Shown: positions 1-44,659 of the stretch, piece by piece
Layout of the letters: each line of letters begins with the position of its first letter
How positions within the stretch are numbered: position 1 is the first letter of the stretch
Sequence record: NC_135732.1
Reading direction: 5' to 3' (one strand)
Length of the DNA: 64,000 bases
DNA from: a phage
Made by a program: the position numbers and the translations under genes
The notes under the pieces: model-generated
What the model saw: only the letters and a program-made list of their open reading frames with translations
Databases searched by the model: none
What the model was told of the DNA's origin: nothing

Positions 1-12
1 CATCAGCAAAAA

Positions 13-113
13 GGTGCTAGGTGATGGAATCGAACCACCTATGTATTCAACGACTACCTCGTCTATTTTCAGGATTAAAAATCCTCGCCCTTGCCAAAGG
101 GCTTACCTAGCTC
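13..113 (-). tRNA. tRNA-like element, atypical (about 99 nt); possible degenerate or insert-containing tRNA
   Basis: Minus-strand read: 7-bp acceptor stem GCTAGGT/ACCTAGC, D-arm GCCC-loop-GGGC, canonical T-arm GGTGG-TTCGATT-CCATC. No clean anticodon arm; best guess loop UUUUUAA (anticodon UUU) followed by a ~30-nt extra region. Confidence 0.35.
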
Positions 114-209
114 AGTATGTTGACCATGTTGCTAGTCGGCGATGACGACTGTAACATTTGATAATCCGGTTCTGCTTCCGGCTTTCGCTTAATTACAAGG
201 TCAACAATA

Positions 210-300
210 TGGCTGAGGGTAATGGAATCGAACCATCATCAAGTCATCCTCAACGGGACGGTTTTCAAGACCGCTTGAGCACCATTGCTCCCTACCCTCA
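210..300 (-). tRNA. tRNA-Ser (anticodon UGA), long variable arm, CCA encoded
   Basis: Hand-folded on minus strand: acceptor TGAGGGT/ACCCTCA, anticodon loop CTTGAAA, T-arm GATGG-TTCGATT-CCATT, 3' CCA at 210-212. Confidence 0.75.
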
Positions 301-414
301 TTTATAAACAATACTGATAATGACACTGATTTTCGAGCAGTTAGTGACTAGTATAAACGACGATAAATATCAATGCCATTATCTGTATGATTTATGCATT
401 TAAAACTATAAATT

Positions 415-501
415 TGGTGGGGAGTGGTGGAGTCGAACCACCCGAGTCGCAATGACAATAGATTTACAGTCTACACCGCTACCCCTACGGGATAACTCCC
501 C
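415..501 (-). tRNA. tRNA-Tyr (anticodon GUA), long variable arm, CCA encoded
   Basis: Acceptor GGGGAGT/ACTCCCC, anticodon stem GTAGA/TCTAT with loop CTGTAAA, T-arm GGTGG-TTCGACT-CCACC. Confidence 0.75.
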
Positions 502-505
502 AATT

Positions 506-580
506 TGGCACCCCGTACTGGACTCGAACCAGTGTCAACGGCTTAGAAGGCCGCTGCTTTATCCACTAAGCTAACAGGGC
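506..580 (-). tRNA. tRNA-Arg (anticodon UCU), CCA encoded
   Basis: Acceptor GCCCTGT/ACGGGGT (with G:U pairs), D-stem GCTT/AAGC, anticodon stem GCGGC/GCCGT with loop CTTCTAA, T-arm ACTGG-TTCGAGT-CCAGT. Confidence 0.75.
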
Positions 581-676
581 ACGGGGTGGCTTTCTTTTAC
601 ACCTTAGCCGCCAGAAAAGGTGGGAGACCATGTTTACAATATTACACTGTTAAGCAAAGTTTGTCAAGAAAATATT

Positions 677-1015
677 TTAGCTATTGCTAACAGGTTGTAT
701 TTCTGTGGTAAATGGCATAAAAGGTGCTGGTTTTTCAGCCTCTTCTACTACCACCTCTTCCTCTTCACCAAACATCTCATCATATTCTTCCTGCATTCGG
801 TCTGCCTTATCAAGAACATACTCTGCAATGCTTTGACGAATATTTTGTTTGGTTTTCGGGTCCAACATCAGCTCTCTTAAAACTTTGTGAGCTTCTGGAA
901 CCATCGCTATAAAAGATTCCTTCATATCAAGGATGTTCTTCTCTAGCTGAATGGCGTTGGACTCCTCTTTCAGAGGTCTGCCTCTACGGCGACGCTTTTT
1001 AGTTGTATCCGCCAT
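677..1015 (-). CDS. hypothetical protein, basic N-terminus and acidic C-terminus
   Basis: ORF track 677..1135 trimmed to ATG at 1015 preceded by GGAGGAAAC RBS; the earlier in-frame part overlaps a spurious plus ORF. Confidence 0.5.
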   Translation of the reverse strand: MADTTKKRRRRGRPLKEESNAIQLEKNILDMKESFIAMVPEAHKVLRELMLDPKTKQNIRQSIAEYVLDKADRMQEEYDEMFGEEEEVVVEEAEKPAPFMPFTTEIQPVSNS

Positions 1016-1359
1016 GTTTCCTCCATTATCACGTGATAGGTGGATTTTATCATAGCAAACACTGATTGTCAAGTTCGCCGCATGGTGGTATTCCATGCGA
1101 CTTGTCCAGCGTCCTGGACCAGCAAGACCCAACAAGTGGGTTACCAGAGCCCATTACCGCACTTTGGCTCGACCTTATTACAGGTTGGCTGGGGTCACAT
1201 CGTCATGTGCTGGCTGCCCCTACCATTTTAAGTGTGGTGCACTATCAAGCCCTCTAAGGGGAACTCAGCCTTCTCCGAACCCTGTTTCAAAGCATCCGGA
1301 GATAAAGCCATCAAATTCATCTTTAAATTGGATATTCATCATGATACACGAAAACAACC

Positions 1360-1602
1360 TCATTGTAAAGCACAAATAAATAAAACATACTTAATTTGTT
1401 TGTTATCAGGCTCAGGGTAGAAGTAGAAGATCTTGCTATCACCGATCTGAACACCACCATCCCAACAGCATAGCCCATAACCCGTATTCATACAAGCTAA
1501 GTCGTTGGCAAAATCTATTGCATCATCCAGTGCACGAAATTCACCTTCATCTTCTAAATAATCCTCATTCATGGAACGAAAAACGAGCTTAACCTTAAAC
1601 AT
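1360..1602 (-). CDS. hypothetical protein
   Basis: 80-aa ORF in co-directional minus-strand block. Confidence 0.45.
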   Translation of the reverse strand: MFKVKLVFRSMNEDYLEDEGEFRALDDAIDFANDLACMNTGYGLCCWDGGVQIGDSKIFYFYPEPDNKQIKYVLFICALQ

Positions 1603-1678
1603 AGCATTACCTGTAGACCTCGTAAGTTAAAATTGCATCACATCATATTGCAGATCTTATCAGGTAACACTATTTTTG

Positions 1679-1888
1679 TCAACAGATTCCGGCCTTATCC
1701 TTCCTGTCTGCGTATTCTTTAATCGCAACCTCATCTGCATTAGTGACCAGGTCTTCAAAGTAACTCTCAAGCTCCTCGTCAATGTCAGGAGACCAGCTCT
1801 TTTTCCTGTCAGTGTGAATTGCAGACTTGTTGAACTTATTACAGTTCTTTGCTACCGGGTTGTTCATTAAGCGCTCCTCAGCGTTCAT
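1679..1888 (-). CDS. hypothetical protein
   Basis: 69-aa ORF, start overlaps stop of upstream gene. Confidence 0.4.
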   Translation of the reverse strand: MNAEERLMNNPVAKNCNKFNKSAIHTDRKKSWSPDIDEELESYFEDLVTNADEVAIKEYADRKDKAGIC

Positions 1889-2456
1889 AGTAAATCTTAT
1901 TTAACATTACCTCATCCTTTGCAGAAAGGATATCAAGATATGCATCACCAAATCTTCCTGCAACAACCTCTGCATGATACATCACTTCGTTAACATCGTC
2001 AAGAGTGATAACCGGATGACCATATCTTTCTGAATATTGTCTCAGGGTGCGATGTAACGAGTCGTCATCATATGCAGACTTTTTAATATCACAAACACGA
2101 CGAATAGCCTTGATGTCGAAAAAACCTGTGCGATACCACCCAAGAAAAAGGTTTCGTGCAGTGTCAACATCTACATTGATACCATCAAGAACCTTATCTA
2201 CAAGATAGCTGTCATCCTTTGGACCAGCGTCCTTAGTGCGAATGTAGTTGCCATCTTTTCCAGGCGACATCTCCTTCTCATCCCCAACCTGCATGCCATC
2301 ATTTGGCGGTGTTAGCCACTTATCCGGATGCTTACGATCACGAGCGTTAGAATGATTACGCTGGAAACCGGGCTTCCACTTGAAAGTTTTCTCCATCTGT
2401 TCTTCATTCTGATAACGTTTTGCAATCTTTTCACGGTCATCTTTGCGTGAACCCAT
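1878..2456 (-). CDS. hypothetical protein
   Basis: 192-aa ORF; GAGGAGG RBS 7 nt upstream of ATG at 2456. Confidence 0.55.
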   Translation of the reverse strand: MGSRKDDREKIAKRYQNEEQMEKTFKWKPGFQRNHSNARDRKHPDKWLTPPNDGMQVGDEKEMSPGKDGNYIRTKDAGPKDDSYLVDKVLDGINVDVDTARNLFLGWYRTGFFDIKAIRRVCDIKKSAYDDDSLHRTLRQYSERYGHPVITLDDVNEVMYHAEVVAGRFGDAYLDILSAKDEVMLNKIYYER

Positions 2457-2959
2457 AGCTGCCTCCTCTTCAAGTTATAGAAAAACTCACTGTATCGCTT
2501 TGTAACGAGCTTTTCTATCAAACTGGTGCGATTGCATTACCTGGTATAGTTTATATAGCTGTGGAGCGATTTAGGGGCCTTCTTGTCAGTTTCCACACAT
2601 AAACTTCATCCAAGCTCGCGCGGGAGACTCTCAACCGACTCCTTACGGCGCTGGCAAGCTTTCGTCGGTGGTCCACATCAGTGCTCGGCCTTTGGCCTGC
2701 GCTATCGCTTCGCTCCCACACATGTTAACAGACCTGTATGTATGAACTTCTGTTATTGTGTGCACCAAAGAGGCCCGGCATCTCGCCCCTCGTAGGCGAG
2801 TGCCAATGAAGGGCCGACACTGCCCATAGTAAGTAATAAATTTAAAACATGGTACTTAGGATCTAGTATATTCTACATAAGTTAAGTATATGTACTTAGT
2901 ACCATAAGTACTAGATCTTTTATTTTTTATTATTTAGTTATTTTAGTTATATTCTTTAT

Positions 2960-3042
2960 GTGTCCGTATCACGGACAGTTAGTGTCCGTATTACGGGCAG
3001 ATGTGTCCGCGTGACGGACAGTAGTGTCCGTATCACGGACAG
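2960..3042. repeat. Four tandem copies of a 19-bp palindrome GTGTCCGTATCACGGACAG (period 21-22 bp)
   Basis: Copies at 2960, 2982, 3003 and 3024; each is an inverted repeat GTCCGT..ACGGAC. Lies in an AT-rich intergenic gap between two minus-strand genes. Confidence 0.8.
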
Positions 3043-3116
3043 TTAATAGTATCCGTTCCATGGCGAACATAAAACATACGAATCCTTATAGTACAGATAT
3101 TTAAGTTTTTACTGGT

Positions 3117-3467
3117 CTAACCAGTTGTTGACATCCGAATAACTTCTTCTGGTGGCAAAACTTTGGAAAATGTGCATCTTTTACCTCTCCCTTGTGTGGA
3201 TGTTTCAACCACTCCTGCACATTCTAAAGTTTTAACGCACGCTGCTGCTTTTGTTTTCTTTATCCCAACATCTGCTGCAATTTTCCTTGTGCTTGGTGTG
3301 AAGCGTGAATTTCCTCCAAGCTTATACCAGTTGTGCAGGTAGCAGTATACGATCTTGTCATACAAGTCAAGAACAACAACCTCCCCAGTTGTGTCATTCA
3401 AAACTTTTGACATAGATAGTATTTCAAGGGGGACTTTAAGATATAGCAGCTTATCCCCATCTTTCAT
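3117..3467 (-). CDS. putative helix-turn-helix DNA-binding protein
   Basis: 116-aa ORF; segment TRKIAADVGIKKTKAAACVKTLECAGVVE resembles an HTH motif. Assignment by eye only. Confidence 0.45.
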   Translation of the reverse strand: MKDGDKLLYLKVPLEILSMSKVLNDTTGEVVVLDLYDKIVYCYLHNWYKLGGNSRFTPSTRKIAADVGIKKTKAAACVKTLECAGVVETSTQGRGKRCTFSKVLPPEEVIRMSTTG

Positions 3468-3514
3468 ATCTCCTGATTCTCCTTGTGTGGCAATTTTCTT
3501 TAAAATAGCAGGGA

Positions 3515-4069
3515 TTACTCCCTGCTGTCAATATCAAAACTCATTGCAATACGGTATGCCTCTTCTAATGGTAAGAGTCTCCCCCACACATCCCAACCGA
3601 CATCAAGCTGCCTGCCAAACAACTGTTGTGTGGTTCCGTGAGCATGACCGAACAGTTGGACTGATCCGTGAGGCTTTCTGTTCCACTTTGCAAACTGGTA
3701 ATGGCTCATACAGATCAAATTCTTGTTGTGGCGAAGCTCGTAATAATCTACAACCTCATGACCGAACTCTTTCATAATTCTGACAGTCGTCCTTGTGTCA
3801 TGGTTGCCACGAACAAGAATAATATGTCCGTTCAACATATTTAGAATATCTGGAAGTAAGTTGTTGATATTCTTATCATTAGTGCACGCAATATCTCCCA
3901 AGTGGAACACAGTGTCTGCAGGTGACACAACAGAGTTCCACTCGGCGATGATTCCCGCATTCATACTGTCAAGATTGTGATCATACTGAGATCTGTGTTT
4001 TTGACATGAATCAAACTCCATGACCCGCTGGTGGAGAAAGTGTGTGTCGCTTGTTACAAAGTATTTCAT
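3515..4069 (-). CDS. calcineurin-like metallophosphoesterase; candidate RNA-end phosphatase (Pnkp-type)
   Basis: Motifs SDTHF, GDIxxxND, GNHD and GHxH. Start set to MKYF at 4069; the track start 4174 overlaps the upstream gene. Confidence 0.7.
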   Translation of the reverse strand: MKYFVTSDTHFLHQRVMEFDSCQKHRSQYDHNLDSMNAGIIAEWNSVVSPADTVFHLGDIACTNDKNINNLLPDILNMLNGHIILVRGNHDTRTTVRIMKEFGHEVVDYYELRHNKNLICMSHYQFAKWNRKPHGSVQLFGHAHGTTQQLFGRQLDVGWDVWGRLLPLEEAYRIAMSFDIDSRE

Positions 4070-4076
4070 ACATTCC

Positions 4077-4487
4077 TCATTTAAGTTTAATGCAGTTTTT
4101 AAGCTGGCGTTCCATACGATCCACAACCTTGTCTGGAACATCATGAATGCTTTTATTACCGTGGCGGTTTTCAACCACGATCACGGTATAACTATACCCA
4201 TGACTGATTGCCATGTCAACATATTCCTGCACATGTTTTTCTTTTGTAAACGTATTACTTACCACGATACGGTCGTATCCCATACGCATCATATCTTCTA
4301 CGTTATCTTTGCACCATTTTGCTGCGAGTGTTACTTTACTTGCATCCCAGTTGTAATTGCCGTCATCGTCATACCAGAACATGTCGTTCTCAAAATGTGG
4401 ATACAGACCCTCTAAAGATAGCGCATTTGCCAGTGTTGATTTGCCAGACCCTGGTAGACCACGCACGATATATAGCATTTTAGACAT
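4077..4487 (-). CDS. P-loop polynucleotide kinase-like protein
   Basis: Walker A YIVRGLPGSGKSTLA resembles the T4 Pnk kinase domain. Start at MSKM (4487) with GGAGGG RBS. Confidence 0.65.
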   Translation of the reverse strand: MSKMLYIVRGLPGSGKSTLANALSLEGLYPHFENDMFWYDDDGNYNWDASKVTLAAKWCKDNVEDMMRMGYDRIVVSNTFTKEKHVQEYVDMAISHGYSYTVIVVENRHGNKSIHDVPDKVVDRMERQLKNCIKLK

Positions 4488-4608
4488 AGTGACCCTCCGT
4501 TTTAATTTCAACGGTAGTATACCTAACTGTTTTGTTAATTTCAAGTGTTGACACTAGGTTATTTGTGTGGCAGGATAGACTGACAAAATGACAAATGAGG
4601 AACGTATA

Positions 4609-5523
4609 ATGAAGTATTTTAATGCAGACGACCTGGTTGACAAAGGTCTTGTAACCAGTAGGTATTACCCAGATCTCGGGTTAAAGATCTATAAATATGC
4701 TAGAAAAGTATTTTACAACAATTTATGGCATTTGTCCCCTCGTTTACTGGAGTGCCGAGGCATTGTTGTAGGTAATGAAGGAAATGTTGTGGCATGGCCC
4801 TTCACAAAAGTGTTTAACTTGGGAGAAAACTCCACCAACCTGCCTGACAATAAGCTTGTGACTGCGGTAGAGAAAAAGAACGGATTCCTTGGTGTGGTAT
4901 CATCTCATAAAGGTGACCTATTGTTCTCAACAACCGGGTCTCTTGATTCTCCATATTGTAACCTTGCAAAGGAAACCATCCAAGAGCAATGTGGTAATTT
5001 AGATCTTATCAAGAAGGTTATGGGCAATGAAAACATGACATTCATGTTTGAAATTTGTCACCCTTCAGATCCGCATATTGTTCAAGAAGACCATGGCGCA
5101 TATTTGATAGGTTGCAGATATAATGATTCTGGAATAATGCTACCAGAAGCAGCTTTAGATGGGATTGCCAAATACCTTGGTGCAAAACGTCCTCACACTG
5201 TGCGTGAAATCCCGTTCAGCTATGCAAAAGAATTAGCCGCAGAAACAAGGGGCGAAGGGTATATGATCCGTAAGCCTTACTACCCTTATGACCTGCAGCT
5301 GAAGATCAAGTCTCCATACTACCTGGCACGGAAGGCCGTAATGAGGGGTAAAGCTTGGAAGATTTGGGATGATGATATCTTTAAACGTGTTGACGAAGAG
5401 TTTTACGGCATGGTAAACTTCATTCGTAACAATTACACAGAAGATGTGTGGAACTGCCTCCTGGAGCAGGAACGCCGTGAGATACTTGATTACTATTTCC
5501 ACAACGAGAACTATATGCAATGA
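4609..5523 (+). CDS. RNA ligase, Rnl1 family (T4 RnlA-like)
   Basis: Recalled similarity to T4 Rnl1: LECRGIVV, KVFNLGEN, and nucleotidyltransferase motif I KKNGF (Lys ~96). Start may be 4588 or 4609 (GAGGAA RBS). Confidence 0.8.
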   Translation: MKYFNADDLVDKGLVTSRYYPDLGLKIYKYARKVFYNNLWHLSPRLLECRGIVVGNEGNVVAWPFTKVFNLGENSTNLPDNKLVTAVEKKNGFLGVVSSHKGDLLFSTTGSLDSPYCNLAKETIQEQCGNLDLIKKVMGNENMTFMFEICHPSDPHIVQEDHGAYLIGCRYNDSGIMLPEAALDGIAKYLGAKRPHTVREIPFSYAKELAAETRGEGYMIRKPYYPYDLQLKIKSPYYLARKAVMRGKAWKIWDDDIFKRVDEEFYGMVNFIRNNYTEDVWNCLLEQERREILDYYFHNENYMQ

Positions 5524-5870
5524 AGAAGTTGATTGTGTGGCTGGATGACTTGAGAGATCCGTCAAATTATGGGCTCCCAGACGCTATTTGGCTAAAGAAT
5601 TCCTCCGAGTTTATAGATTTTATTAACGATAGGGGAAAGCTCTACAGACGCGTTTCTGAGTGGCACATGGACAACGACCTTGGAGAGTTGTTCGAAGGGT
5701 ACGATTGCCTATCTATGTTGGAGGAAAAATTTGTATTTGGTAAGCCCCCTGTAGTTGACAACGTGAAGATTTTCGTGCATACTTCTAACCCATCAGCGGC
5801 TCGTAAATTCATGCTTGCAGCTGACTCGTTTAAAAAGTTTGGAATAGAGATTAAACAAAACATCTACTGA
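5520..5870 (+). CDS. hypothetical protein, 116 aa, co-operonic with RNA ligase and Sir2-like gene
   Basis: ATGA start/stop overlap with the ligase gene. No recognisable family; short N-terminal strand IVWLDD. Confidence 0.5.
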   Translation: MKKLIVWLDDLRDPSNYGLPDAIWLKNSSEFIDFINDRGKLYRRVSEWHMDNDLGELFEGYDCLSMLEEKFVFGKPPVVDNVKIFVHTSNPSAARKFMLAADSFKKFGIEIKQNIY

Positions 5871-5878
5871 GGACACTT

Positions 5879-6640
5879 ATGCGACGACTGATTATTATCT
5901 CCGGTGCTGGTTTGAGCGCTGAATCTGGTATTCCCACTTTCCGATCTGGTAGCACTGCAATGTGGGAGAATTTCAGCATCGATGAGGTGTGCAACATCCA
6001 CACCTTTGCCAAGAACTACTACAAGGTGCATGACTTTTACAATGCACGTCGTGTAGCTCTAGGCGGTGTTGAGCCTAACCTTGCACATCTTCGGATCGCT
6101 GAGTGGTATTCCCGCTGGTCTGGTCGTGTGATCAACCTTACCACCAATGTAGATGATTTGCTGGAGCGTGCTGGTGTAAAACATGAAGATATTTTACATG
6201 TTCACGGGTATTTGCCAGAAATAGTCTATGAGGACGATGAAGGAAGTGACGTCATTAAGGACATTGGATACTCTGAGGTAGATGCAGGAAAGTATACCTG
6301 GGTTAAACCTAATGTGGTGTTCTTCGGAGAAGTAGCTCCGAAGTATACAGACATGTATGACCTGTTGACTTCTCTTACAAGCAATGATATGGTTATCCTT
6401 GTAGGGTGTTCCAACACAGTTATCAATTTTAACTGGGAGCTATTCCCTGCCTGCAATAAGGGCACCAAACTGCTGATCGTTAACAAATACGACTCACAGC
6501 ATCTAGAGGAGAATGGCATTTCACGTAGTGATATTTACCAGTACGAGGATCGCGGCATCCCGGTTTGGTTTAACGGGGCGGTTGACGCTTTCTCTGATAA
6601 AACATTCATTGAGACCGTAGAAAACTTTATGGAACTTTAA
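5879..6640 (+). CDS. Sir2-family (sirtuin-like) NAD-dependent protein lacking the zinc ribbon
   Basis: Sirtuin motifs GAGLSAESGIPTFR, TTNVDDL, HVHG, VVFFGE and VGCS..VINF..LLIVN. No CxxC...CxxC module after HG. Confidence 0.8.
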   Translation: MRRLIIISGAGLSAESGIPTFRSGSTAMWENFSIDEVCNIHTFAKNYYKVHDFYNARRVALGGVEPNLAHLRIAEWYSRWSGRVINLTTNVDDLLERAGVKHEDILHVHGYLPEIVYEDDEGSDVIKDIGYSEVDAGKYTWVKPNVVFFGEVAPKYTDMYDLLTSLTSNDMVILVGCSNTVINFNWELFPACNKGTKLLIVNKYDSQHLEENGISRSDIYQYEDRGIPVWFNGAVDAFSDKTFIETVENFMEL

Positions 6641-6653
6641 AAGGAGACCTTTA

Positions 6654-7367
6654 ATGCTGAATACTAAACTGATCGACAACCTGGAAAAACTGTCTCAGCC
6701 TGAAAACTATCTTTGGTCTGCCAACTGGGTGGAAAACTGGAACCGTGTGGCAGCTAAAGTGAAAAAATCATACACACCATTCGAATTACAGCTTAGCTTC
6801 ATTGAGGAAGAGTTCAATGAGGTTTTGGAAGAGCTGGAGAAAGGTGATGGTGGAGATCACCTGCTAAAAGAGGCCTGCGATCTTCACGTTGTCACAAGTT
6901 ATGCCGCTTATCTTGTTAATGATAATCACGAAAAGTGGTCAAACCTGTTTGATAATCCACGAGGTCTTAAGTTCAAGATCGGTGAGTTCTATGATACACT
7001 GATCGCTGCGAAAAACACATCCAAGCAAAGAGCGTCAGCTTACCGCTTAGCGGAGTTGTCAACAGCTTTGCTGTTCCAGCTTCGCGGCGATGTGTGTGGG
7101 ATGATGCGGAAGGTTCTCAAATCCAATGACAGCAAGTTTGCACGGATCAACCATCTACGATATTCTCACGGTGCCAGTGCAGATATGTCTACTGAATTGC
7201 TCATAGAGTTAGAGATTGAAGATCTTGAGCGTCGTTTTGGTGGTCGCTACGAAGGTTTCGTTGCTAAAGAGGAGTTCTACAACGGTAATAAAGTTATTAT
7301 ATTCCTTGACAGTAAAGGTAAGATTATGAAGCCTTCGAGCTTCAAGGATGTAACAGAGTATATTTAA
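6654..7367 (+). CDS. hypothetical protein; possible MazG-like NTP pyrophosphohydrolase
   Basis: 237-aa ORF; segment FIEEEFNEVLEELEKGDGGDHLLKEACD resembles a MazG/all-alpha NTP-PPase EExxE helix. Weak. Confidence 0.4.
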   Translation: MLNTKLIDNLEKLSQPENYLWSANWVENWNRVAAKVKKSYTPFELQLSFIEEEFNEVLEELEKGDGGDHLLKEACDLHVVTSYAAYLVNDNHEKWSNLFDNPRGLKFKIGEFYDTLIAAKNTSKQRASAYRLAELSTALLFQLRGDVCGMMRKVLKSNDSKFARINHLRYSHGASADMSTELLIELEIEDLERRFGGRYEGFVAKEEFYNGNKVIIFLDSKGKIMKPSSFKDVTEYI

Positions 7368-7372
7368 CAACA

Positions 7373-7398
7373 TAGCCGGGATTACCCGGCTTTACTTA
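7373..7398 (+). terminator. rho-independent terminator
   Basis: Hairpin AGCCGGG-attac-CCGGCT followed by a T-rich run. Confidence 0.6.
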
Positions 7399-7429
7399 TT
7401 ATGGAAAGTATGCAGTGAGGTAGTTAGTT

Positions 7430-7738
7430 ATGTACAAGCATTCCAGAGATCTTGAAAAAGATGCTGTGTTTGGCGACCAGATGAAGGAGCTGATCAAACT
7501 TATAGGTAGAATGGAAGATAAGTTTGACACTAAAATCTACATCGATAGCAAGATCTTCAACCACAAAATATGGACAAATGTGTGTGTTGGGCTACATGGT
7601 GATAAAGATATTGTAAATTTGGTTGTAATAAAGTTCATAGTGTGGCAGAATAGGACTATACGTTATTCCGATCCACACTTACTTGTTTATCCTATAAAAG
7701 ACCTACTACAGAAGGAGGACTGCAATGCCGTTATTTAA
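7430..7738 (+). CDS. hypothetical protein
   Basis: 102-aa ORF. Confidence 0.45.
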   Translation: MYKHSRDLEKDAVFGDQMKELIKLIGRMEDKFDTKIYIDSKIFNHKIWTNVCVGLHGDKDIVNLVVIKFIVWQNRTIRYSDPHLLVYPIKDLLQKEDCNAVI

Positions 7739-7994
7739 TCTTGCTAAACCTGTAGAAGCACACCAGTTTGATGGAAGCTCTTCATCAGTATCTGATCTGC
7801 AACGGTGGATTGATACAGGTGTGTTTACATCGTCACCTGTTCGGACCAGAGATATTCGTCGCATGTGTGAGCTTGTTGAGCCGTTTGGCAACTTGGTTTT
7901 GTACCAGGGAGATTGGTTAGTTGACTTTATGGGAGACTGGTTGGTAATGAGTAAAGAAGAGATGTTTAAAATTTTTAAGGAAGAGGCCGAGTAA
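7725..7994 (+). CDS. hypothetical protein
   Basis: 89-aa ORF, overlapping stop/start with neighbours. Confidence 0.45.
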   Translation: MPLFNLAKPVEAHQFDGSSSSVSDLQRWIDTGVFTSSPVRTRDIRRMCELVEPFGNLVLYQGDWLVDFMGDWLVMSKEEMFKIFKEEAE

Positions 7995-9277
7995 TGCATC
8001 AAATCAAAACAACACTGTACGCACTGAACAAAGATGGCAGCTACCAACAGTGGAAAGTATTCACTGATGGCGAAAAGGTTATCGTAGAGTTTGGCAAGCT
8101 TGACGGTAAATTGCAGTACAAAGAGACGGTATGTACACCTAAAAACGTAGGTCGTGCCAACGAGACTACAGCTGAGCAACAGGCCGAGCTTGAGGCTATC
8201 AGCAAGTGGGAAAAACAAGTCCGTCTGGGGTATGTTGAAAACATGGAAGATTGCGAGCAGGGTGTTGATCTTTTACCTATGCTGGTGCATGACTACCTGA
8301 AGCGTGGCAAGGCACTTAAATTACCTTGCTGGATCTTGCGTAAGTTAGATGGCCTTCGTCTGCTTGTTGTTTTCCAAAATGGTGAGCCTAAATTTATTTC
8401 CCGTGGTAATAAGTCCTACCCTATTCAAGGAAAGCTTTTAGAGCAACTTCGTTCTTTCCATTCTACCACTGGGATTAAACAACTTGATGGGGAACTATAC
8501 ATTCATGGTCTTCCTTTGCAGAAAATAGTGTCTCTTGCTAAACGGTGGCGCACACAGGAAGAGATTCAGGCCGAGATCGATAAAGACTATGAGGCAGATA
8601 AAAAACGCCGTCATGCAGCAATTAAGGCAGGCTTATCAACATACAAAAACTTCAACAAGGTAGATATTCCTGTCGATGTTGAGCCTGTTCGTGATGATTT
8701 GCGTTACGGTGGATACTGTAGCTACGATCTGGAGTATCACATTTTTGATATTCCTAGCGACAAGGTGTGGTGGGATCCAGAAACAGAGTCTGGACGCTGC
8801 AAGGATCTTATGGATGCAGAGGATACCGTTACCACTCTGATGCTTGATCATATCAAGGTTGTTGACGCAGAGCTTGCGTACACAGTTGATCATTGCGAAG
8901 AATCTGTTGGTATATTCATGTCCGAAGGATATGAAGGTACTATCATGCGTAATTTCTGCGGTAAATATGAGTATGGTCAGCGAACATCTGAAGCATTGAA
9001 ATGGAAAAAGTTCAACGACGCAGAGGTGAAAGTTATTGACGTTGAGAAAGATAAGAATGATGAAGGTGTTCTTATCTGTGTTGACAAGGAAGGTGTTGTT
9101 GTTAAAATGAAGATGAAAGGCACGCACGAGGAGCGTAGCTATGACAGAATGCAGGAAATGATCGGCAAGTTTGTCACCTTCAAATATCAAGCAAGGACAG
9201 AAGACAACAACTACCAATTCCCTGTCGGTATCTGCGTCCGAAATGTTAACCCAGACACTTGGGAGGTGCTTGAATGA
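7994..9277 (+). CDS. ATP-dependent DNA ligase
   Basis: Ligase motif I RKLDGLR, motif III DGELYIHG, motif IV EGTIMR, motif V KWKK. Confidence 0.8.
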   Translation: MHQIKTTLYALNKDGSYQQWKVFTDGEKVIVEFGKLDGKLQYKETVCTPKNVGRANETTAEQQAELEAISKWEKQVRLGYVENMEDCEQGVDLLPMLVHDYLKRGKALKLPCWILRKLDGLRLLVVFQNGEPKFISRGNKSYPIQGKLLEQLRSFHSTTGIKQLDGELYIHGLPLQKIVSLAKRWRTQEEIQAEIDKDYEADKKRRHAAIKAGLSTYKNFNKVDIPVDVEPVRDDLRYGGYCSYDLEYHIFDIPSDKVWWDPETESGRCKDLMDAEDTVTTLMLDHIKVVDAELAYTVDHCEESVGIFMSEGYEGTIMRNFCGKYEYGQRTSEALKWKKFNDAEVKVIDVEKDKNDEGVLICVDKEGVVVKMKMKGTHEERSYDRMQEMIGKFVTFKYQARTEDNNYQFPVGICVRNVNPDTWEVLE

Positions 9278-9400
9278 TGTAGGAAGGTTCAGTAGGTAAC
9301 GGTAGCCAATTGAATGATGGTTTTCAATCGGCACCTACATAACCACACTGTGTAGTGTTGTTGATCGTGTTAGTTATGAGTAAACTGGAGAGTATGAAAA

Positions 9401-9871
9401 ATGAAACTTGATAAAAATGTTCAACGAAAAGCTTTCTTGGACATGATCGCATATTCGGAAGGCACAGATAATGGTAGGCAACCCACTAAGGATCGGGGAT
9501 ACGATGTCATAGTTGGTGGCAAGCTGTTTAGCGATTACAGCAAGCATCCAGGTGTGTACGTTAAGCTAAATGCTAAACTTACCTCCTCCGCTGCTGGTCG
9601 TTACCAGGTTTTGGAGAAGTTTGCTAAACACTACATGGAACAGTTAGGATTGCCAGATTTTGGCCCCGCCAGTCAGGACAAGATTGCGTTGCAACTGATC
9701 CGTGAGTGCAAGGCTCTCGCCGACATTGACGAAGGGCGTATCCACGAGGCTATCCATAAATGCCGTTCCCGCTGGGCTTCGTTACCTGGTGCTGGATATG
9801 GTCAGCATGAACAGAAGATCGAGAAGTTGATCGAGGTGTTTAAAAAGGCAGGCGGTGTTGTCCTTGATTGA
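9401..9871 (+). CDS. endolysin, lambda R-type lytic transglycosylase
   Basis: Near-colinear with recalled lambda R: RKAFLDMIAYSEGTDNGRQ, GYDVIVGG, AGRYQ, WASLPGAGYGQ. Confidence 0.9.
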   Translation: MKLDKNVQRKAFLDMIAYSEGTDNGRQPTKDRGYDVIVGGKLFSDYSKHPGVYVKLNAKLTSSAAGRYQVLEKFAKHYMEQLGLPDFGPASQDKIALQLIRECKALADIDEGRIHEAIHKCRSRWASLPGAGYGQHEQKIEKLIEVFKKAGGVVLD

Positions 9872-9934
9872 TCATTGACATAACCACACGGACGTGGTAT
9901 TGTTACCTCATAAAATGTTTAGGAGGGCTTAACC

Positions 9935-10141
9935 ATGAAAGATTTTCTGTTGGCAATTTTGTTCATGGTAGCATGTCTGTCCTGTGGTGTCGTGTTTGCA
10001 GGTGAAACAGCGTATCTTGTCGATGTATATCGGGACAATGGTAAACGTATTTGCCTTTATGAGACAAGTCAAGGTGAGCTCTACGAGCTTGTGAAACAAG
10101 GTGAGGCAGGTTCCTGCCCTCGCACCCATTTCTTTGAATGA
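9935..10141 (+). CDS. small secreted or lipoprotein-like protein
   Basis: 68 aa with N-terminal hydrophobic signal LLAILFMVACLSCGVVFA; immediately downstream of the endolysin. Confidence 0.45.
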   Translation: MKDFLLAILFMVACLSCGVVFAGETAYLVDVYRDNGKRICLYETSQGELYELVKQGEAGSCPRTHFFE

Positions 10142-10169
10142 GGGAGAACACGTGGAAGACGGACGTTTA

Positions 10170-10616
10170 ATGAAGTCTGAACGCAGGCTTATTGTGCAAC
10201 TGATCCCAGAAACAGCTTGGTATAATAACCTCCGAAACGCTGTGAAGAAGAGTGAGTGGGATAAGATACGTAAGAAGTGCTATAGAGAAGCCAACTACAC
10301 TTGTGAGGTGTGCGGCGGTAAAGGCAGCAAACACCCAGTGGAGTGTCATGAACTTTACACTTTCGAAGAGGGAGTGATCCGGCTTGTCGGACTGATAGCA
10401 CTGTGCCCGGATTGTCACACATCGGTGCATCCTGGGTTAGCAAATATCCGTGGAAAGTATGCTCAGGCAGTTAATCAGTTGGCTAAGGTGAATAAGATCA
10501 CCAAGAGTATGGCAGAGGCGTATTACCGAGACTGCTTTGCAGAGTGGCGTGAGCTTAGTAAAGTTCCAGAATGGAAGACTGACTTTTCGTGGATAGAGGG
10601 TTACCTTGATGGCTAA
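10170..10616 (+). CDS. putative HNH-type zinc-finger nuclease
   Basis: Cys/His motifs CEVCG...HPVECHELY...CPDCH. Start moved to ATG 10170; track start is GTG 10101 overlapping the upstream ORF. Confidence 0.45.
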   Translation: MKSERRLIVQLIPETAWYNNLRNAVKKSEWDKIRKKCYREANYTCEVCGGKGSKHPVECHELYTFEEGVIRLVGLIALCPDCHTSVHPGLANIRGKYAQAVNQLAKVNKITKSMAEAYYRDCFAEWRELSKVPEWKTDFSWIEGYLDG

Positions 10617-10899
10617 GAGACCTGTAAAAGAGAAATTCGATAAGACAGCTTTTGTATTCGATACACCTCTGGACGACATCATTAGAGGTATGCAATCATT
10701 GTATCGGAAGGCTGAATCTGAGCAGCTGTCGGAATCAGAACTTTACTGGCTCGGTTGGTGGGAGTTAAACCTGCCTAAAGCTGAAAGTTCTTCTCTGAGA
10801 ACTGTTAAAACGTGCGCCCAAGAAAACGCTGCACTTGGAATCTACCACAAAAGGAAAAGATCAACAAAAAGCTCTCCAAGAAAGACTAAAAAGTCTTGA
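10606..10899 (+). CDS. hypothetical protein
   Basis: 97-aa ORF with basic C-terminus. Confidence 0.4.
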   Translation: MMAKRPVKEKFDKTAFVFDTPLDDIIRGMQSLYRKAESEQLSESELYWLGWWELNLPKAESSSLRTVKTCAQENAALGIYHKRKRSTKSSPRKTKKS

Positions 10900-10925
10900 C
10901 AAAAGTGTTATTAATCTGATATTAT
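10896..10925 (+). promoter_or_regulatory. sigma70-like promoter
   Basis: TTGACA, 18-bp spacer, TG-n-TATTAT extended -10. Confidence 0.55.
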
Positions 10926-10958
10926 CGGTCAGATATCTATAAACTAGGAGAACTAGAT

Positions 10959-11267
10959 ATGCTTAAAATTTTTATTGTTGAAGATAAAGATATTGTCCAG
11001 TTGTATGCAAACGAGAATCATAAAGGTATGATTCTGAAGAAGGCAAGCAACCTTCATGAAAACACAATTCAACCTGGCGATGTAATTAAGATCTGTGGTT
11101 ATATGATACCAGACTCCTTGATGAAAATAACCCACCACTGGGGGTCTAATCCGTTCCTTTTTGAAAAGTATTGGGATGTTGAGTCACTTATTGCAGAGAG
11201 TGATGATGCATTCCATTACAGCATCCAACCATCTTGCAGAATAACTAACAGGAGGGTCTTTGAGTAG
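10959..11267 (+). CDS. hypothetical protein
   Basis: 102-aa ORF downstream of the promoter. Confidence 0.5.
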   Translation: MLKIFIVEDKDIVQLYANENHKGMILKKASNLHENTIQPGDVIKICGYMIPDSLMKITHHWGSNPFLFEKYWDVESLIAESDDAFHYSIQPSCRITNRRVFE

Positions 11268-12399
11268 AGAATATCCACTTATTGAGTCCATAGATTGTCT
11301 GGCTGATCTTCTTGAACCTGACGCTATAGTTTATTATGACTTCGATCAGGTTGCATATCAAGCTGCAGCAAGTTGTGAAAAAAGGACAATTGAGGTAACA
11401 CACAAAGCCTCCGGACGTAAGAAGATGTTTAAAACACGAACAGAGTTCTGGGGGCGGCAGAAGAACACAGTTGGTGGTTGGTTAAAAGCTGAGAATACCA
11501 ACCGTGAAGCTGCATGTAAAAAGGCTGGCAAGGAGTTTATTCCGTGGACACGAGAAGATTTCGATGTCTTGGATATCCAAACCCCTGATCCTGTAGAGAA
11601 CTGCTTGCACACAATTAAGTGTAAAGCGAATGCAGTCCTTAATTATCTCGGTATTCCGGAAGATCGGTGCGTGGGGGTACTTGGAGGCACAGGTAATTTC
11701 AGACTAGATCTTCCCATGCCGGAAAGATATAAAGCCAACCGTAACAATACTCTTCGACCACTGCTGCTTGGAGATGCAAGACAGTATCTCCAAAAGCAGT
11801 ATAATGCTCAAGTGATCAACGGTATCGAGGCTGACGACTGGTTAGCTATCCAGCAATTTGAAGGTTGGAACCACTACCAAAAAACAGGTAAGTTCAACAA
11901 GTTTATTATCTCTATTGATAAGGACCAAAGAACACTGCCGGGGCTTGTGTTCGATCCCATGCGAAACGATAAGGGAGATTTTGTAAGGGAAACCCCTATG
12001 CTGATCGATAACGGTATGGGGAACATCTTCATGAAGCCTAATGGAGAGGTTGGTGGTTACGGAATGCTGTTCTTCGGATACCAAATGCTGTGTGGTGACT
12101 CTGCCGACAATATCAAGCCGTATCAAGGACTTATCGGTAAGGGTAAGTTCGGGGATGCCTCAGCATTCTACCTACTGTCTCAGTGCAGCACTCCAAAGGA
12201 GATGTGGGTGGCTATTATTGATCAGTACAAGAAGTGGTTCCCGAAAGGTGTTGTTAAGTATACTGACTTCAATGGTGTTGATCGTAGAATTTCCGTAGGT
12301 CAATGGATGAGTATAATTTTTGACTGTTTGTATATGAAGCGAACATTCAATGATCAAACAAAACTTGTTAACGTTCTCAGAAATGTTGGAGCAATTTGA
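11260..12399 (+). CDS. 5'-3' exonuclease / flap endonuclease (T4 RNase H-like)
   Basis: Motifs YKANR and GIEADDW, N-terminal acidic YDFDQ; resembles Pol I 5' nuclease and T4 rnh. Confidence 0.7.
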   Translation: MSREYPLIESIDCLADLLEPDAIVYYDFDQVAYQAAASCEKRTIEVTHKASGRKKMFKTRTEFWGRQKNTVGGWLKAENTNREAACKKAGKEFIPWTREDFDVLDIQTPDPVENCLHTIKCKANAVLNYLGIPEDRCVGVLGGTGNFRLDLPMPERYKANRNNTLRPLLLGDARQYLQKQYNAQVINGIEADDWLAIQQFEGWNHYQKTGKFNKFIISIDKDQRTLPGLVFDPMRNDKGDFVRETPMLIDNGMGNIFMKPNGEVGGYGMLFFGYQMLCGDSADNIKPYQGLIGKGKFGDASAFYLLSQCSTPKEMWVAIIDQYKKWFPKGVVKYTDFNGVDRRISVGQWMSIIFDCLYMKRTFNDQTKLVNVLRNVGAI

Positions 12400-12731
12400 T
12401 GACTAAAAATTCTGTAGATAGTGCAATTATGGAAGCTGTTTTTGAGGATGATCATACAACAGGGACACTTAAAACAAAAAATACATTCGTTGTTGCCACA
12501 GGTATGTGGCGGTTGTATGAAGATGACACCATTTCATACATCCTGTACACTGATGATTACGCAGATGACCGTGTATGGTCTGCTGTTTTAAAAGAGGATT
12601 GTGAACTGATTGAGGGCGAGCGGTTATGCATGTTCACCAGTGTGGAAACAGATGTTAAGCTTTGCTCTCTCGTCTTGTTCAAAGATAAGGCTTATGCTCC
12701 TGATGAAGGAGAGGAGGATGAGGAAGTATGA
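12396..12731 (+). CDS. hypothetical protein, acidic C-terminus
   Basis: 111-aa ORF, ATGA overlap with upstream gene. Confidence 0.5.
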   Translation: MMTKNSVDSAIMEAVFEDDHTTGTLKTKNTFVVATGMWRLYEDDTISYILYTDDYADDRVWSAVLKEDCELIEGERLCMFTSVETDVKLCSLVLFKDKAYAPDEGEEDEEV

Positions 12732-13357
12732 GAGAGCGTCTATTATCCATAGACCAGTCGTTGACACACACAGCTTGCGTTGTATGGGACGATGGAAAGC
12801 CTGTTCATAAGGTTGTGTTACGAACTCAAAGCTCATCTGCAAAAGAGAAGAAACCAGGGACGGTTTCTTTTGCAACAGCTGCTGAGCGTATTGACTGGAT
12901 CTGCAAACAGGTCAGATATTATATCCACACGCATGGAGTTGACACCGTGGTTATGGAAGGACTTTCCTTCGGATCTCGCGGGGATGCCACACGTGAACTG
13001 GCTGGGTTGTTTTACGGTCTCGAAGTTATGCTTTGGGATGCTTTAGCTGATTGTGAAAATGACGGCCTGTTTAAGGTTCACACAGTGACACCAACAACTG
13101 CCAAAAAGTTTGCTCGTAGTCATCTTCCTGAAGAACTTGCTTTTGAGGAGAAGAAAAAGCTTGACAAAAAGACAGGTAAAGAGCATACTGTGAAGAAACC
13201 TGTTACGATGGATAAAAAGTTGATGGTTAAGGCCTGCGAAGTATCTGAACCAGGGTTCCTAGATGGGATCAATTTGGTACAAGGTAAGGCCGATCTCGCA
13301 GATGCTTATTGGATAGGCAGGGCGCATCTGGAGGGGTTATCGCAAAGCGTAAAATAA
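12728..13357 (+). CDS. RuvC-like Holliday junction resolvase
   Basis: Catalytic-style acidic motifs LSIDQS, VVMEGLSFGS, DAYWIG in RuvC order. Confidence 0.6.
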   Translation: MRERLLSIDQSLTHTACVVWDDGKPVHKVVLRTQSSSAKEKKPGTVSFATAAERIDWICKQVRYYIHTHGVDTVVMEGLSFGSRGDATRELAGLFYGLEVMLWDALADCENDGLFKVHTVTPTTAKKFARSHLPEELAFEEKKKLDKKTGKEHTVKKPVTMDKKLMVKACEVSEPGFLDGINLVQGKADLADAYWIGRAHLEGLSQSVK

Positions 13358-13914
13358 GAAAGAAAGCTGTCAAAGCCCCCGTTCATAGCGGGTGGCTAAA
13401 AGATTCTAAGGACATAGCCAACTTTCGAAAAGAATTGTCAGAGGAGCAGGATGGTCTTGATCCGATCTTGTGCGAGCCACTTCGTAAGCCTTGTTTAGAT
13501 CATGATCATCTGACTGGTCGTTGCAGGGGTGTTTTGTCTCAGTGCACTAATACCTTTGAGGGGTATGTGCTTAAATACTGGATGAAATACTGTAACGAGT
13601 ATACAGATTGCAGTTTATCAGAGGCGTTGCGCCGGATGGCTGACTATCTGGAGAAAGACTACAGCGACTTCCCGCTCCACAAAAACTACAGAGATGATAT
13701 GACAAAGTTCTTGAGGAGATGCTCTAAAGCTACGATTATTGCACGAGCAGAATCAGATCTCAATCTTGTCATTAATCCAGAGTGCACCAAGCATGAGGCT
13801 ATTGAGTCCTACATGCAGGAGTTTATAAAGAAAACTGAGGAGAGAGATTTCTATGGGGATGAAAAAGGTATTCAATCCTTGCGACTCAGTCCTGATCAGG
13901 ATGAAATACCGTAA
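13309..13914 (+). CDS. endonuclease VII (T4 gp49-like)
   Basis: CLDHDHLTGRCRGVLSQCTNTFEG matches the T4 EndoVII signature. Start uncertain; 49-nt overlap with upstream gene. Confidence 0.75.
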   Translation: MDRQGASGGVIAKRKIRKKAVKAPVHSGWLKDSKDIANFRKELSEEQDGLDPILCEPLRKPCLDHDHLTGRCRGVLSQCTNTFEGYVLKYWMKYCNEYTDCSLSEALRRMADYLEKDYSDFPLHKNYRDDMTKFLRRCSKATIIARAESDLNLVINPECTKHEAIESYMQEFIKKTEERDFYGDEKGIQSLRLSPDQDEIP

Positions 13915-41685: not shown

Positions 41686-41897
41686 TCAACACACATGCAT
41701 CTGAAGAGACATCCGAAGGAGTGACGACCATATGTAACCTGGCTGAGCCAGTGAAAGAGGAAAACTTCGATTCTGAAGATTCTCCATCTTCGCTCCAGGT
41801 AGACCCTGAGGCTGATGACCTGACGTGGGAGGACATCGTAGACATCTGGTTCTCTATTATGCCTGAGCACGAAGAGTTCAGAGGTGGTAGACTATGA
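41682..41897 (+). CDS. hypothetical acidic protein
   Basis: 71-aa ORF. Confidence 0.4.
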   Translation: MINTHASEETSEGVTTICNLAEPVKEENFDSEDSPSSLQVDPEADDLTWEDIVDIWFSIMPEHEEFRGGRL

Positions 41898-42017: not shown

Positions 42018-42233
42018 ATGAAGATAGAAATATTTGGTGGGGCTGACAACACTCGTGGCCTGATTTACCTTGAATTCGATGAATCATACCTGCCAGAGGT
42101 GTTAAATATAGACTCTGTTGCTGAGGCTTTGGGAGTAAACCCTAAAGAACTCCACTCTTGTGCTGAGATCGATGGTTGGGAAGAGACCATGAACATTGAT
42201 TTCAGTGAAGTAGAGGATGAACCGCTGGACTGA
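42018..42233 (+). CDS. small acidic protein (starts MKIEIFGG)
   Basis: Start ATG 42018 after GAGGAGA RBS. Confidence 0.45.
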   Translation: MKIEIFGGADNTRGLIYLEFDESYLPEVLNIDSVAEALGVNPKELHSCAEIDGWEETMNIDFSEVEDEPLD

Positions 42234-43699: not shown

Positions 43700-43800
43700 A
43701 CATGACACTTTTACACACCTATTAGTTTACACACTGGATTGTTTACATTCCTGATTGTTCACATGCTAACCATTTACATGATTGACTGTTTACACACCGA
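43700..43800. repeat. Cluster of short direct repeats (iteron-like): TGTTTACA(C) and CATGACA
   Basis: Six or more copies of GTTTACA/TTTACAC within ~100 bp; further copies at ~44216 and ~44259. Confidence 0.7.
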
Positions 43801-43807
43801 TAATCAG

Positions 43808-44060
43808 CCATGCCATTCGTTTGCATGACAATAATTATACATGACAATAATCGCACTGATTATAATTAGCATGACATAATATAAAAGCAGGGCAACTATT
43901 AGCAGATCTATAGTTGCCTTGCTTGTTATGTCATGATTAACTAAATACAAGGCAACTATGATCTGATTAATAGTTTGCAGACAAACTATCACGGGGGTGA
44001 TGGTTACTGCTTTTATATTATGTCGCGACTCCGTCGCGCCATGCCATTCGTTTGCATAGT
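43808..44060. repeat. Composite element: 20-bp direct repeats flanking a 16-bp perfect inverted repeat and nested palindromes
   Basis: GCCATGCCATTCGTTTGCAT at 43808 and 44040; CATAATATAAAAGCAG (43875-43890) with its exact reverse complement at 44007-44022; palindrome GGCAACTAT...ATAGTTGCC at ~43891-43919. Confidence 0.75.
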
Positions 44061-44659
44061 TGCCTTATTGTTACAGATAAAATAATTGTATTGTTAATTA
44101 TTTCTTATCTTTCTATTAGTCATCTAATGATTTCAGTTAATATAGTAACGTACAGTAAACATTAGACGACTAAAGATTTCTCTGCTTATGGTAACCTAAC
44201 GTGACAATTCCAGACTGTTTACGAAAAATGTTGACACCTGGGCCGATTTATGTTATGCAGTTTACACGAATAATTATTTTATGCAGGTATTGACTATTCC
44301 GTTATTCTACGGTTGGAATAAATGCTTAGCAGGCTATAGAATGGCGAGCGTACGTAAATTCTGAGATCTGGCGGCTATAGTTATACTCGATTTTTCACGT
44401 AGAAAACGCTTTTGTAGTTATGTAAGTGTATGACTTATAAGAATTTTTAGTTGTTGACAAGCTATTGAAGATATGCATCAGGTTAAATTTTGTGCAAATG
44501 CTGCATTACGTGCAATTTTGGAAGGAAAAACGTGTAAAAATGGCCCTGCTACCACACAATGAAAAATTATGCAATAGTTATTTTATATGTATGTTTGTAC
44601 AGTGGGGTTAATTGCTGGCTTGTTGATTATTCCATTTGCCAGGCGGGGCCATTTGTGGT

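Follow-up and report, generated by a model that had tools for sequence, protein, structure and literature searches.

A candidate replication origin module specific to Vequintavirus, with a hairpin array shared with capsid-encoding Escherichia coli plasmids

In plasmid RSF1010, the origin oriV combines iterons and an AT-rich region with ssiA and ssiB, two 40-nt hairpins for the plasmid primase. The lambda origin, oriLambda, consists of four 19-bp imperfect inverted-repeat iterons, which are bound by dimers of the O protein, plus an AT-rich tract (PMC7466680). For rV5, the skew analysis in the genome paper located no origin and only found strand-switch points (PMC3606486). Here, we analyzed a 64,000-nt stretch of phage DNA from record NC_135732.1 (the window) and focused on a 660-bp gap at positions 2457-3116 between two minus-strand coding sequences (CDSs), 1878-2456 and 3117-3467. 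The window is from a Vequintavirus, i.e., an rV5-like E. coli myophage of a group with genomes of ~137 kb, and the 118 phage records with a match to the region 2400-3500 (89-100% identity) are without exception Vequintavirus. The gap contains tandem repeats and an AT-rich zone next to a gene for a putative binding protein and, therefore, has the layout of oriLambda or of an iteron plasmid origin. We consider it a candidate cis-acting replication origin module that is specific to the genus, and we assign this reading a probability of roughly 0.45. Because rV5-like phages, which are widely used in phage therapy and O157 typing, have no defined origin, a candidate origin together with its putative cognate binder would supply the missing element.

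A sequence-only reading of this DNA had divided the gap into a GC-rich segment, an AT-rich stretch with an inverted repeat, and four tandem palindromes, and we found all three at the positions that it gave. The iteron- or lambda-type architecture and the homology of the GC-rich array to non-coding DNA of small capsid-encoding E. coli plasmids go beyond that reading. The features are listed below from the adjacent gene across the gap; percentages are mean pairwise identities in an alignment of nine vequintaviruses picked for divergence.

3117-3467, minus strand: gene for a 116-amino-acid (aa) winged helix-turn-helix (wHTH) protein, the proposed palindrome binder.
3046-3116: spacer, weakly conserved, between the repeats and the stop codon of the wHTH gene; 86.8%, our local estimate of neutral divergence.
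2960-3045: four tandem dyad-symmetric repeats, proposed iterons and putative sites for the dimeric winged-helix protein; 97.9%.
2826-2959: AT-rich zone of 134 bp with a GC fraction of 0.22-0.33, directly abutting the repeats, proposed DNA-unwinding element; 97.5%.
2769-2825: module M7 of the GC-rich element, a two-tier hairpin GGCCC-G-GCA(T)CTCGCC...GGCGAGTGC-CAATGAA-GGGCC (2772-2815) followed by GACACT; 95.2%.
2723-2768: module M4, a long variable hairpin CACACATGTTAACAG...CTGTTATTGTGTG; 76.5%.
2681-2722: module M2, small GC hairpins (GGCC-TTT-GGCC and others), ending in CCCACACA (2715-2722); 96.8%.
2615-2680: module M1, with the 61-nt GCGCGGGAG...GGTCCACAT (2618-2678), which has the stem ACCGAC/GTCGGT and a 24-nt loop; 96.9%.
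2520-2614: variable 5' part of the GC-rich element with the 17-mer GGTGCGATTGCATTACC (2525-2541), the conserved GATTTAGGGG (2568-2577), and the first CCACACA (2593-2599); 88.9%, near the neutral level.
2457-2519: leader, a conserved stretch from the start of CDS 1878-2456 to the GC-rich element; 97.9%.
Neighbouring CDSs: 93.6-96.1%.

The four palindromes have the core TGTCCG-N5-CGGACA at 2961-2977, 2983-2999, 3004-3020, and 3025-3041. Two copies are identical, and the remaining two are 82% and 77% identical to those. Four tandem copies had been described, and their number was correct; the stated length of 19 bp was not, as the symmetric core is 17 bp and the repeat period 21-22 bp (start-to-start spacings of 22, 21, and 21 bp). 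With at most one mismatch, the core was found in four copies, all in this array; with at most two mismatches, there were six copies in the 64 kb, including two further weak matches, compared to 1.29 expected. The palindromes had also been suggested as cooperative binding sites for a dimeric protein, and the 17-bp dyad and the period of approximately two helical turns have the form that would be expected of such sites. The array folds far better than shuffled sequences on the two strands (z = −7.7 and −7.1); such a strong fold is inevitable for palindromes and silent on function. Stem variants, i.e., TGCCCG in FV3 and CGGGCA in the second copy, give G-T wobbles on opposite strands in different phages, which fits recognition as double-stranded DNA better than an RNA hairpin.

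The suspicion that the product of 3117-3467 has a helix-turn-helix (HTH)-like segment was borne out. Matches of the 116-aa protein to Pfam HTH_36 and DUF6945 are just below the cut-offs, and a profile made with three remote homologues and searched against PDB matched 4ro3 (6e-12) and then the wHTH domains of CodY, MarR, and SlyA. The protein is in PHROG 12838 and has weaker matches to phrog_8102, 428, and 270, and all four families are labelled "replication initiation protein." In the phage records, the gene is mostly named "putative transcriptional regulator," and in several, including RefSeq, "replication initiation protein." The protein is confined to the same 118 Vequintavirus records, and homologue searches returned near-identical proteins and three remote HTH_36/DUF6945 proteins and nothing else. 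AlphaFold on the single sequence gave an unusable model (predicted local distance difference test score, 39).

Within the AT-rich zone, 2830-2937 forms one long imperfect palindrome of ~108 bp. It includes the inverted repeat GATCTAGTA/TACTAGATC at 2860-2868/2909-2917, which is 100% complementary, and a second inverted pair, ATGGTACTTAG/CTTAGTACCAT, at 2849-2859/2895-2905. The zone also contains two GATC sites, and its plus strand folds at −26.2 kcal/mol vs −17.2 kcal/mol for the minus strand, with T-rich sequence following. The 13-mer GATCTTTTATTTT at 2914-2926 is the sole exact match in the 64 kb to GATCTnTTnTTTT (0.11 expected), which we take to be the 13-mer consensus of E. coli oriC. On the other side of the gap, the leader carries an inverted repeat of its own, ATAGAAAAACTC/GAGCTTTTCTAT, at 2477-2488/2507-2518. 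The palindromes, the AT-rich zone, and three of the GC-rich modules are conserved at or above the level of the flanking genes; because they lie beside stretches with identities of 76.5-88.9%, they appear to be discrete conserved cis elements amid freely drifting DNA. The low identity of M4, in which V5, Murica, and typing phage 5 have an 18-nt deletion, indicates a dispensable or unconstrained module.

Based on this anatomy, we propose that dimers of the 116-aa winged-helix protein would bind the four repeats at 2960-3045. The 21-22 bp period would set the four sites on one face of the helix and, thus, could allow cooperative binding of dimers, as for lambda O at its four iterons. The bound complex would then strain the adjoining AT-rich palindrome in 2826-2959, which would melt. 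More speculatively, the GC-rich array at 2520-2825 might subsequently be used as a single-stranded priming or loading site, as are ssiA and ssiB beside the RSF1010 iterons; alternatively, it might give rise to a structured RNA that is transcribed toward the melting zone, as is ColE1 RNA II.

The GC-rich array has a GC fraction of 0.51-0.60 over 2551-2800, compared to ~0.40 in the flanking genes. In a search of E. coli genomes, parts of it were ~85% identical to non-coding DNA of small circular plasmids. This plasmid family includes NZ_CP020521.1 (L006; 13,689 bp), pE275a_13, pVTB448v-4, and CP148565 as well as L319, a 13.9-kb metagenome contig. Family members are 13.2-13.9 kb in size, and one record, 39.6 kb long with the element in triplicate, looks like a trimer. 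Three scans with short or gapped DNA patterns (GCGCGGGAGACTCT on viral contigs and on genome contigs, and a gapped pattern on metagenome contigs) returned almost exclusively chance matches and one true plasmid-type contig, L319. The aligned array copies consist of a 5' region with ATTTAGGGG, the 61-nt M1, a variable set of hairpin cassettes with CCCACAC(A) at the end of each, and a terminal module. The first and last modules are common to the arrays of the phage and NZ_CP020521.1, the middle modules differ, and closely related plasmids vary in the number and order of cassettes. The array is, thus, a modular series of hairpin cassettes with CCCACAC(A) as the separator.

Comparison of phage and plasmid copies revealed that the hairpins are maintained. 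M1 is ~85% identical to the plasmid copies, and of the nine differing positions, six make up three compensatory pairs: the 6-bp stem is ACCGAC/GTCGGT in the phage and GCTGCC/GGCAGC in the plasmid, so that three of the six pairs are changed on both sides. Three double changes in this stem were reached by 3 of 500 shuffles, and no double changes were obtained when the partner columns were slid. In M7, which is also present in NZ_CP020521.1, two stem pairs are G-C in the phage and T-A in the plasmid, again with both sides changed. Altogether, we counted five compensatory changes (three in M1 and two in M7) and no disruptive ones in a comparison of two lineages, phage and plasmid, which hence comprises few independent events. 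These observations show that intra-strand pairing in the array is kept by selection, either as RNA or as single-stranded DNA.

The folds did not single out one strand. Alignment folds of the array gave −86.9 kcal/mol for the minus strand vs −83.1 kcal/mol for the plus strand, per-sequence fold energies point to one strand in some members and to the other strand in others, and the strand favoured by one-sided changes varies from helix to helix. RNA folding and an Rfam scan had been named as checks on the GC-rich segment. Single-sequence folding of the whole element was not significant on either strand (z = −1.4 and −0.7), and among its parts M7 did fold on the plus strand (z = −3.0). Rfam 15 at gathering thresholds detected only tRNAs in the whole window, and at E ≤10, the region 580-3200 had only chance-level matches, the best of which was rli43 with 21.9 bits vs a gathering score of 100; the segment therefore matched no family. 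Apart from one mismatch, the phage 17-mer GGTGCGATTGCATTACC is the reverse complement of GGTAATGCAATTGCACC, which occupies the corresponding position in the plasmids (L006, ~12302-12318), and the sequence around it keeps the same orientation in phage and plasmids. Such an inversion is the behaviour that would be expected of a double-stranded DNA site for a protein.

A local blastn of the plasmid against the window added one 55-nt cassette with three mini-hairpins. Copies of this 55-60-nt cassette, with ~82% identity between phage and plasmid, are at 41701-41760 in the window, at 10882-10938 in L006, and at 571-625 and 2915-2953 in L319. It lies within overlapping open reading frames (ORFs) in the phage and within a low-complexity linker of the Rep-like gene in the plasmid. 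Similar cassettes differ between L319 and L006 as insertions flanked by short direct repeats (CCACA..., GACTAACAAA), which suggests that the three-mini-hairpin cassettes are mobile units. The cassette type recurs with three unrelated sequences, and most of its triloops are GNA (GAA, GTA) on the strand that reads CCCACACA. GNA-type loops are unusually stable in DNA hairpins, which is at most a weak pointer to the CCCACACA strand. A scan of the phage window for clusters of three mini-hairpins found no enrichment.

The plasmids encode a major capsid protein (phrog_29), a neck/tail-completion protein, a Dit-like protein, a 706-aa tape measure protein, and small HTH proteins as well as a 303-aa Rep-like wHTH protein that matches PHROGs labelled "replication initiation (O-like)." Neither the annotation nor family scans, which covered the annotated genes only, revealed a terminase, portal, tube, or sheath. 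For the capsid protein, identity to the counterparts in a few myophages of 140-150 kb is only ~22%. Approximately 0.5 kb from the plasmid array, there are at least six palindromic repeats (CGGAAATATTTACCGGGGT), the first three of which are 23 bp apart, and AT-rich repeats are present too; the plasmid origin region, thus, has the same ingredients as the phage gap. As plasmids have to replicate autonomously, this parallel speaks for the origin reading. The phage palindrome was not found in the plasmids bearing the related hairpin array, and therefore, the plasmids do not simply borrow the phage binding protein. By BLASTP, the Rep-like protein of the plasmids and the wHTH protein of the phage showed no similarity. 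We also compared the whole plasmid with 50,697 phage records by blastn (E ≤1e-4): positions 1-8000 had no phage match, and positions 8001-13689 matched only Vequintavirus, the matches listed being this element.

Based on their gene content, the plasmids look like plasmid-borne phage satellites. Because the array lies near the palindromic iterons of plasmids that otherwise share only the 55-nt cassette with any sequenced phage, it is probably a cis signal linking these satellite-like plasmids to vequintaviruses. The GC content of the array, which is high for a phage of ~40% GC, suggests that the array came from the plasmid lineage, as far as we can infer from composition. A broader proposal, which we put forward tentatively and do not favour, is that the array is an undescribed cis element shared exclusively by a lytic phage genus and 13-kb satellites, that it provides a route into helper replication or packaging, and that its cassettes are gained, lost, and exchanged like mobile units. 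In the literature, we found no paper on these plasmids or on a vequintavirus satellite, and nothing relevant on non-coding RNA, an origin, or a transcript map of vequintaviruses. As this DNA similarity is exclusive to vequintaviruses and the small capsid-encoding plasmids, the two may form a satellite-helper pair.

Several observations weigh against an origin. A Klebsiella Mydovirus (L342) and Phapecoctavirus anhysbys (L343) lack the wHTH gene, the palindromes, the AT-rich zone, and the hairpin array at the syntenic place, which follows the phosphoesterase homologue and is tightly packed with small genes, with no large gap. The module is, therefore, not the ancestral origin of the group and, judging from these genomes, appears to be a Vequintavirus-specific acquisition. 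The PHROG matches of the 116-aa protein beyond its own family are weak (E = 8e-6 to 5e-3), it does not match Pfam Phage_rep_O, and no homology to lambda O, RepA, or DnaD was found above curated thresholds. The 299 aa of lambda O include a P-binding C-terminal half, whereas the 116-aa protein is a bare DNA-binding domain with no detected part for interaction with a helicase loader; four operators and a wHTH protein could fit a transcription factor equally well. The DnaA box TTATNCACA occurs three times in the 64 kb, i.e., at chance level, and not within 16 kb of the gap. DnaA boxes are common in plasmid origins and are not required in lambda. The GC-skew inflection, ~1.5 kb from the gap, coincides with the switch of the coding strand and is uninformative on the origin. 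Finally, the match to GATCTnTTnTTTT is a single event with a chance probability of ~10%, and the hairpin array would have its role by analogy only.

Among the alternatives, we hold it to be unlikely that the wHTH protein is an ordinary regulator whose four operators repress, activate, or roadblock transcription where the early RNA-repair genes give way to the small genes, tRNA cluster, and late genes downstream, with the AT-rich palindrome as promoter or bidirectional stop. The prevailing gene name and the CodY, MarR, and SlyA regulators as the nearest solved relatives by profile are in agreement with such a role, as is the position of the gap inside one long minus-strand transcription unit (PMC3606486). 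The AT-rich zone is, moreover, conserved in sequence beyond its composition, a pattern that typifies protein or RNA polymerase sites more than simple melting zones. However, the sites are downstream of the regulator's own gene and not in its promoter, a promoter scan and a terminator scan found neither a sigma-70-like promoter nor an intrinsic terminator in 2457-3116, and the lack of another good copy of the palindrome in 64 kb argues against a regulon operator; four two-turn sites plus a 134-bp AT-rich block are also more elaborate than typical operators. That the palindromes instead form a terminator array, as the sequence-only reading had also suggested, or RNA-stabilizing hairpins for the 3117-3467 mRNA is very improbable: they begin 71 nt past the stop codon of that gene, and four 6-bp hairpins would form in the transcript, but no T-run (U-run in RNA) follows them on either strand, 2300-3600 contains no terminator-like site on either strand, the exact 21-22 bp phasing would be meaningless for RNA, and the wobbles in the stem variants fall on opposite strands. 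Even less credible is a small protein encoded by the GC-rich stretch. The best ORF there, on the minus strand (2551-2721; 56 aa), is annotated in some records and open in eight of the nine phages examined, and a 3-nt deletion in Murica stays in frame. It has a GTG start and no ribosome-binding site, however, and in two phages at ~89% DNA identity, 7 of 20 residues in its variable C-terminal third differ, so that the changes look largely non-synonymous. By hand translation, the compensatory stem changes cause non-conservative replacements (H-R to R-C and S-R-L to R-Q-Q), and neither start nor stop is common to the plasmid copies. The ORF, thus, shows no purifying selection on a protein, in line with the prediction that the GC-rich part has no supported gene, and we regard both the terminator array and the small gene as essentially excluded.

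The hairpin array itself might act independently of replication. One improbable, though not far-fetched, explanation is a stand-alone structured non-coding RNA, more likely from the plus strand and so antisense to the flanking genes, that serves in regulation, titration of host or satellite factors, or counter-defence, with the plasmids carrying their own versions. A GC-rich island beside a tRNA cluster in an AT-rich phage is typical of RNA genes, and the hairpins are kept through compensatory changes. On the plus strand, the array in most plasmids ends with a hairpin plus TTTCATTT and has a weak promoter upstream, and in the phage, the better-folding plus strand of the AT-rich zone is followed by T-rich sequence; the motif CCCACACA, which is enriched overall, is also in sense orientation in 5' leaders at 41907 and 45637. 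The lack of any Rfam match even at E ≤10, the weak fold z-scores of the whole element, and the lack of a promoter in the phage gap speak against such an RNA. So do the similar scores of both strands in alignment folds, with one-sided changes pointing to different strands by helix, and the 17-mer that is inverted between phage and plasmid, which is better suited to a double-stranded DNA site. We think it quite unlikely that the array is a pac-type packaging signal for the vequintavirus terminase that the plasmids copied to become packaged, as P4 shares cos with P2. The plasmids do carry capsid, neck, Dit, and tape measure genes with neither terminase nor portal annotated or detected, their phage matches are to Vequintavirus only, those listed being this element, and short motifs repeated at intervals are common in sites for terminase small subunits. 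By contrast, terminase binding would not require co-varying hairpin stems, the element is far from the structural and terminase genes, which are outside the window, the start points of the phage assemblies are scattered and do not suggest an end here, and the neighbours in both phage and plasmids are repeats and AT-rich DNA, which point to replication.

The gap is surrounded by minus-strand genes and a tRNA cluster (13-580), with CDS 1878-2456 on the tRNA side. Across records, existing annotation of the gap consists of "repeat_region," a few dubious small ORFs, and one predicted promoter. Past the 116-aa gene, 3515-5523 encodes a metallophosphoesterase plus P-loop kinase (AAA_33/zeta-toxin-like; 3515-4544), a divergent RNA ligase 1-like protein, and a Sir2-family protein, i.e., an RNA-repair-type gene set adjoining the tRNA cluster and the gap module. 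In the cluster, a tRNA-like gene on the minus strand (13-111; 97-99 nt) is reported by ARAGORN as type undetermined with a 4-base anticodon; the Rfam alignment reads it as a tRNA with a 26-nt insert past the anticodon arm, and it is labelled tRNA-Lys or tRNA-OTHER in the records. Another GC-rich stretch (~0.53) without a convincing ORF is located at ~1050-1330 on the minus strand, where it separates two small genes and immediately precedes a TTGACA-17-TAAAAT promoter; it has no Rfam match and may be another structured element. Eighteen to 19 of the records that match the gap region (MG0656xx) were deposited as "Campylobacter phage" (host C. jejuni); they are 95-99% identical to E. coli vequintaviruses here and are probably mislabelled or contaminant phages.

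Motifs of the array recur elsewhere in the window. CCCACACA is present in 12 copies compared to 2.4 expected, and 7 of the 12 are in non-coding DNA; its positions include 2715, 41907, 43128, 43330, 43484, 43558, and 45637. The sense-orientation copies at 41907 and 45637 are each located between a promoter-like site and the ribosome-binding site of the next gene. Four of these positions are in 42230-44700, a 2.5-kb region between converging gene blocks that corresponds to the "non-coding" box of the rV5 paper and has no ORF of at least 70 aa save a 75-aa ORF (42635-42862), which we take as spurious. This region contains CCCACACA on both strands, a TTTACAC run at 43700-43800, CATGACAATAAT repeats, and several TTGACA-type promoter-like sites. 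It also holds five same-strand copies of CCTGAAGAG, of which there are six in the window compared to 0.59 expected. A 2.9-kb non-coding region of the plasmids uses the same motifs, e.g., ATTGCCTGAAGAGG.

Among described systems, oriLambda resembles the gap in that four tandem dyad repeats abut an AT-rich tract with the gene for the binding protein at the same locus (PMC7466680). It differs in that the lambda origin is inside the O gene, whereas the repeats of the gap are 71 bp downstream of the wHTH gene; lambda also has no adjacent hairpin array, and the proteins have no detectable sequence homology. Iteron plasmids, and RSF1010 oriV in particular, have repeats at approximately two turns, an AT-rich unwinding zone, and nearby conserved hairpin DNA. 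Classical iterons, however, are direct repeats bound by Rep monomers, whereas those in the gap are dyad-symmetric, and the two RSF1010 hairpins compare with a modular array of ~300 nt here. In ColE1 (RNA II) and at the T4 (oriF and oriG) and T7 origins, which combine a promoter with an unwinding element, a structured transcript directed toward an easily melted region primes or activates replication. This arrangement would suit a plus-strand reading of the array by analogy, but no promoter, RNase H site, or persistent-hybrid motif was identified in the gap.

P2/P4 cos provides a parallel for a short non-coding stretch that is almost the only DNA common to a large phage and a small element without detected packaging genes. 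Cos, however, is a defined cleavage site by the terminase genes, whereas the array adjoins repeats and AT-rich DNA, and the helper role of the vequintavirus is putative. T4-type PeSL and Rickettsia RPE are likewise small hairpin cassettes that differ in number and order between close relatives, and one cassette is within reading frames here. The cassettes described here differ in being delimited by CCCACAC(A) without a recognizable promoter, and their mobility is deduced only from presence or absence between plasmids. An origin of iterons plus AT-rich DNA is of a known kind, and the new aspect would be that, in a large virulent phage, dyad repeats follow a minimal wHTH gene. For the CCCACAC(A)-delimited array that is shared only with capsid-encoding plasmids, we found no described counterpart, and it could prove new in kind. 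If the satellite-helper link is genuine, the pair would be unusual in three respects: a plasmid as the satellite, a large virulent myophage as the helper, and a fast-evolving hairpin array instead of cos as the shared signal.

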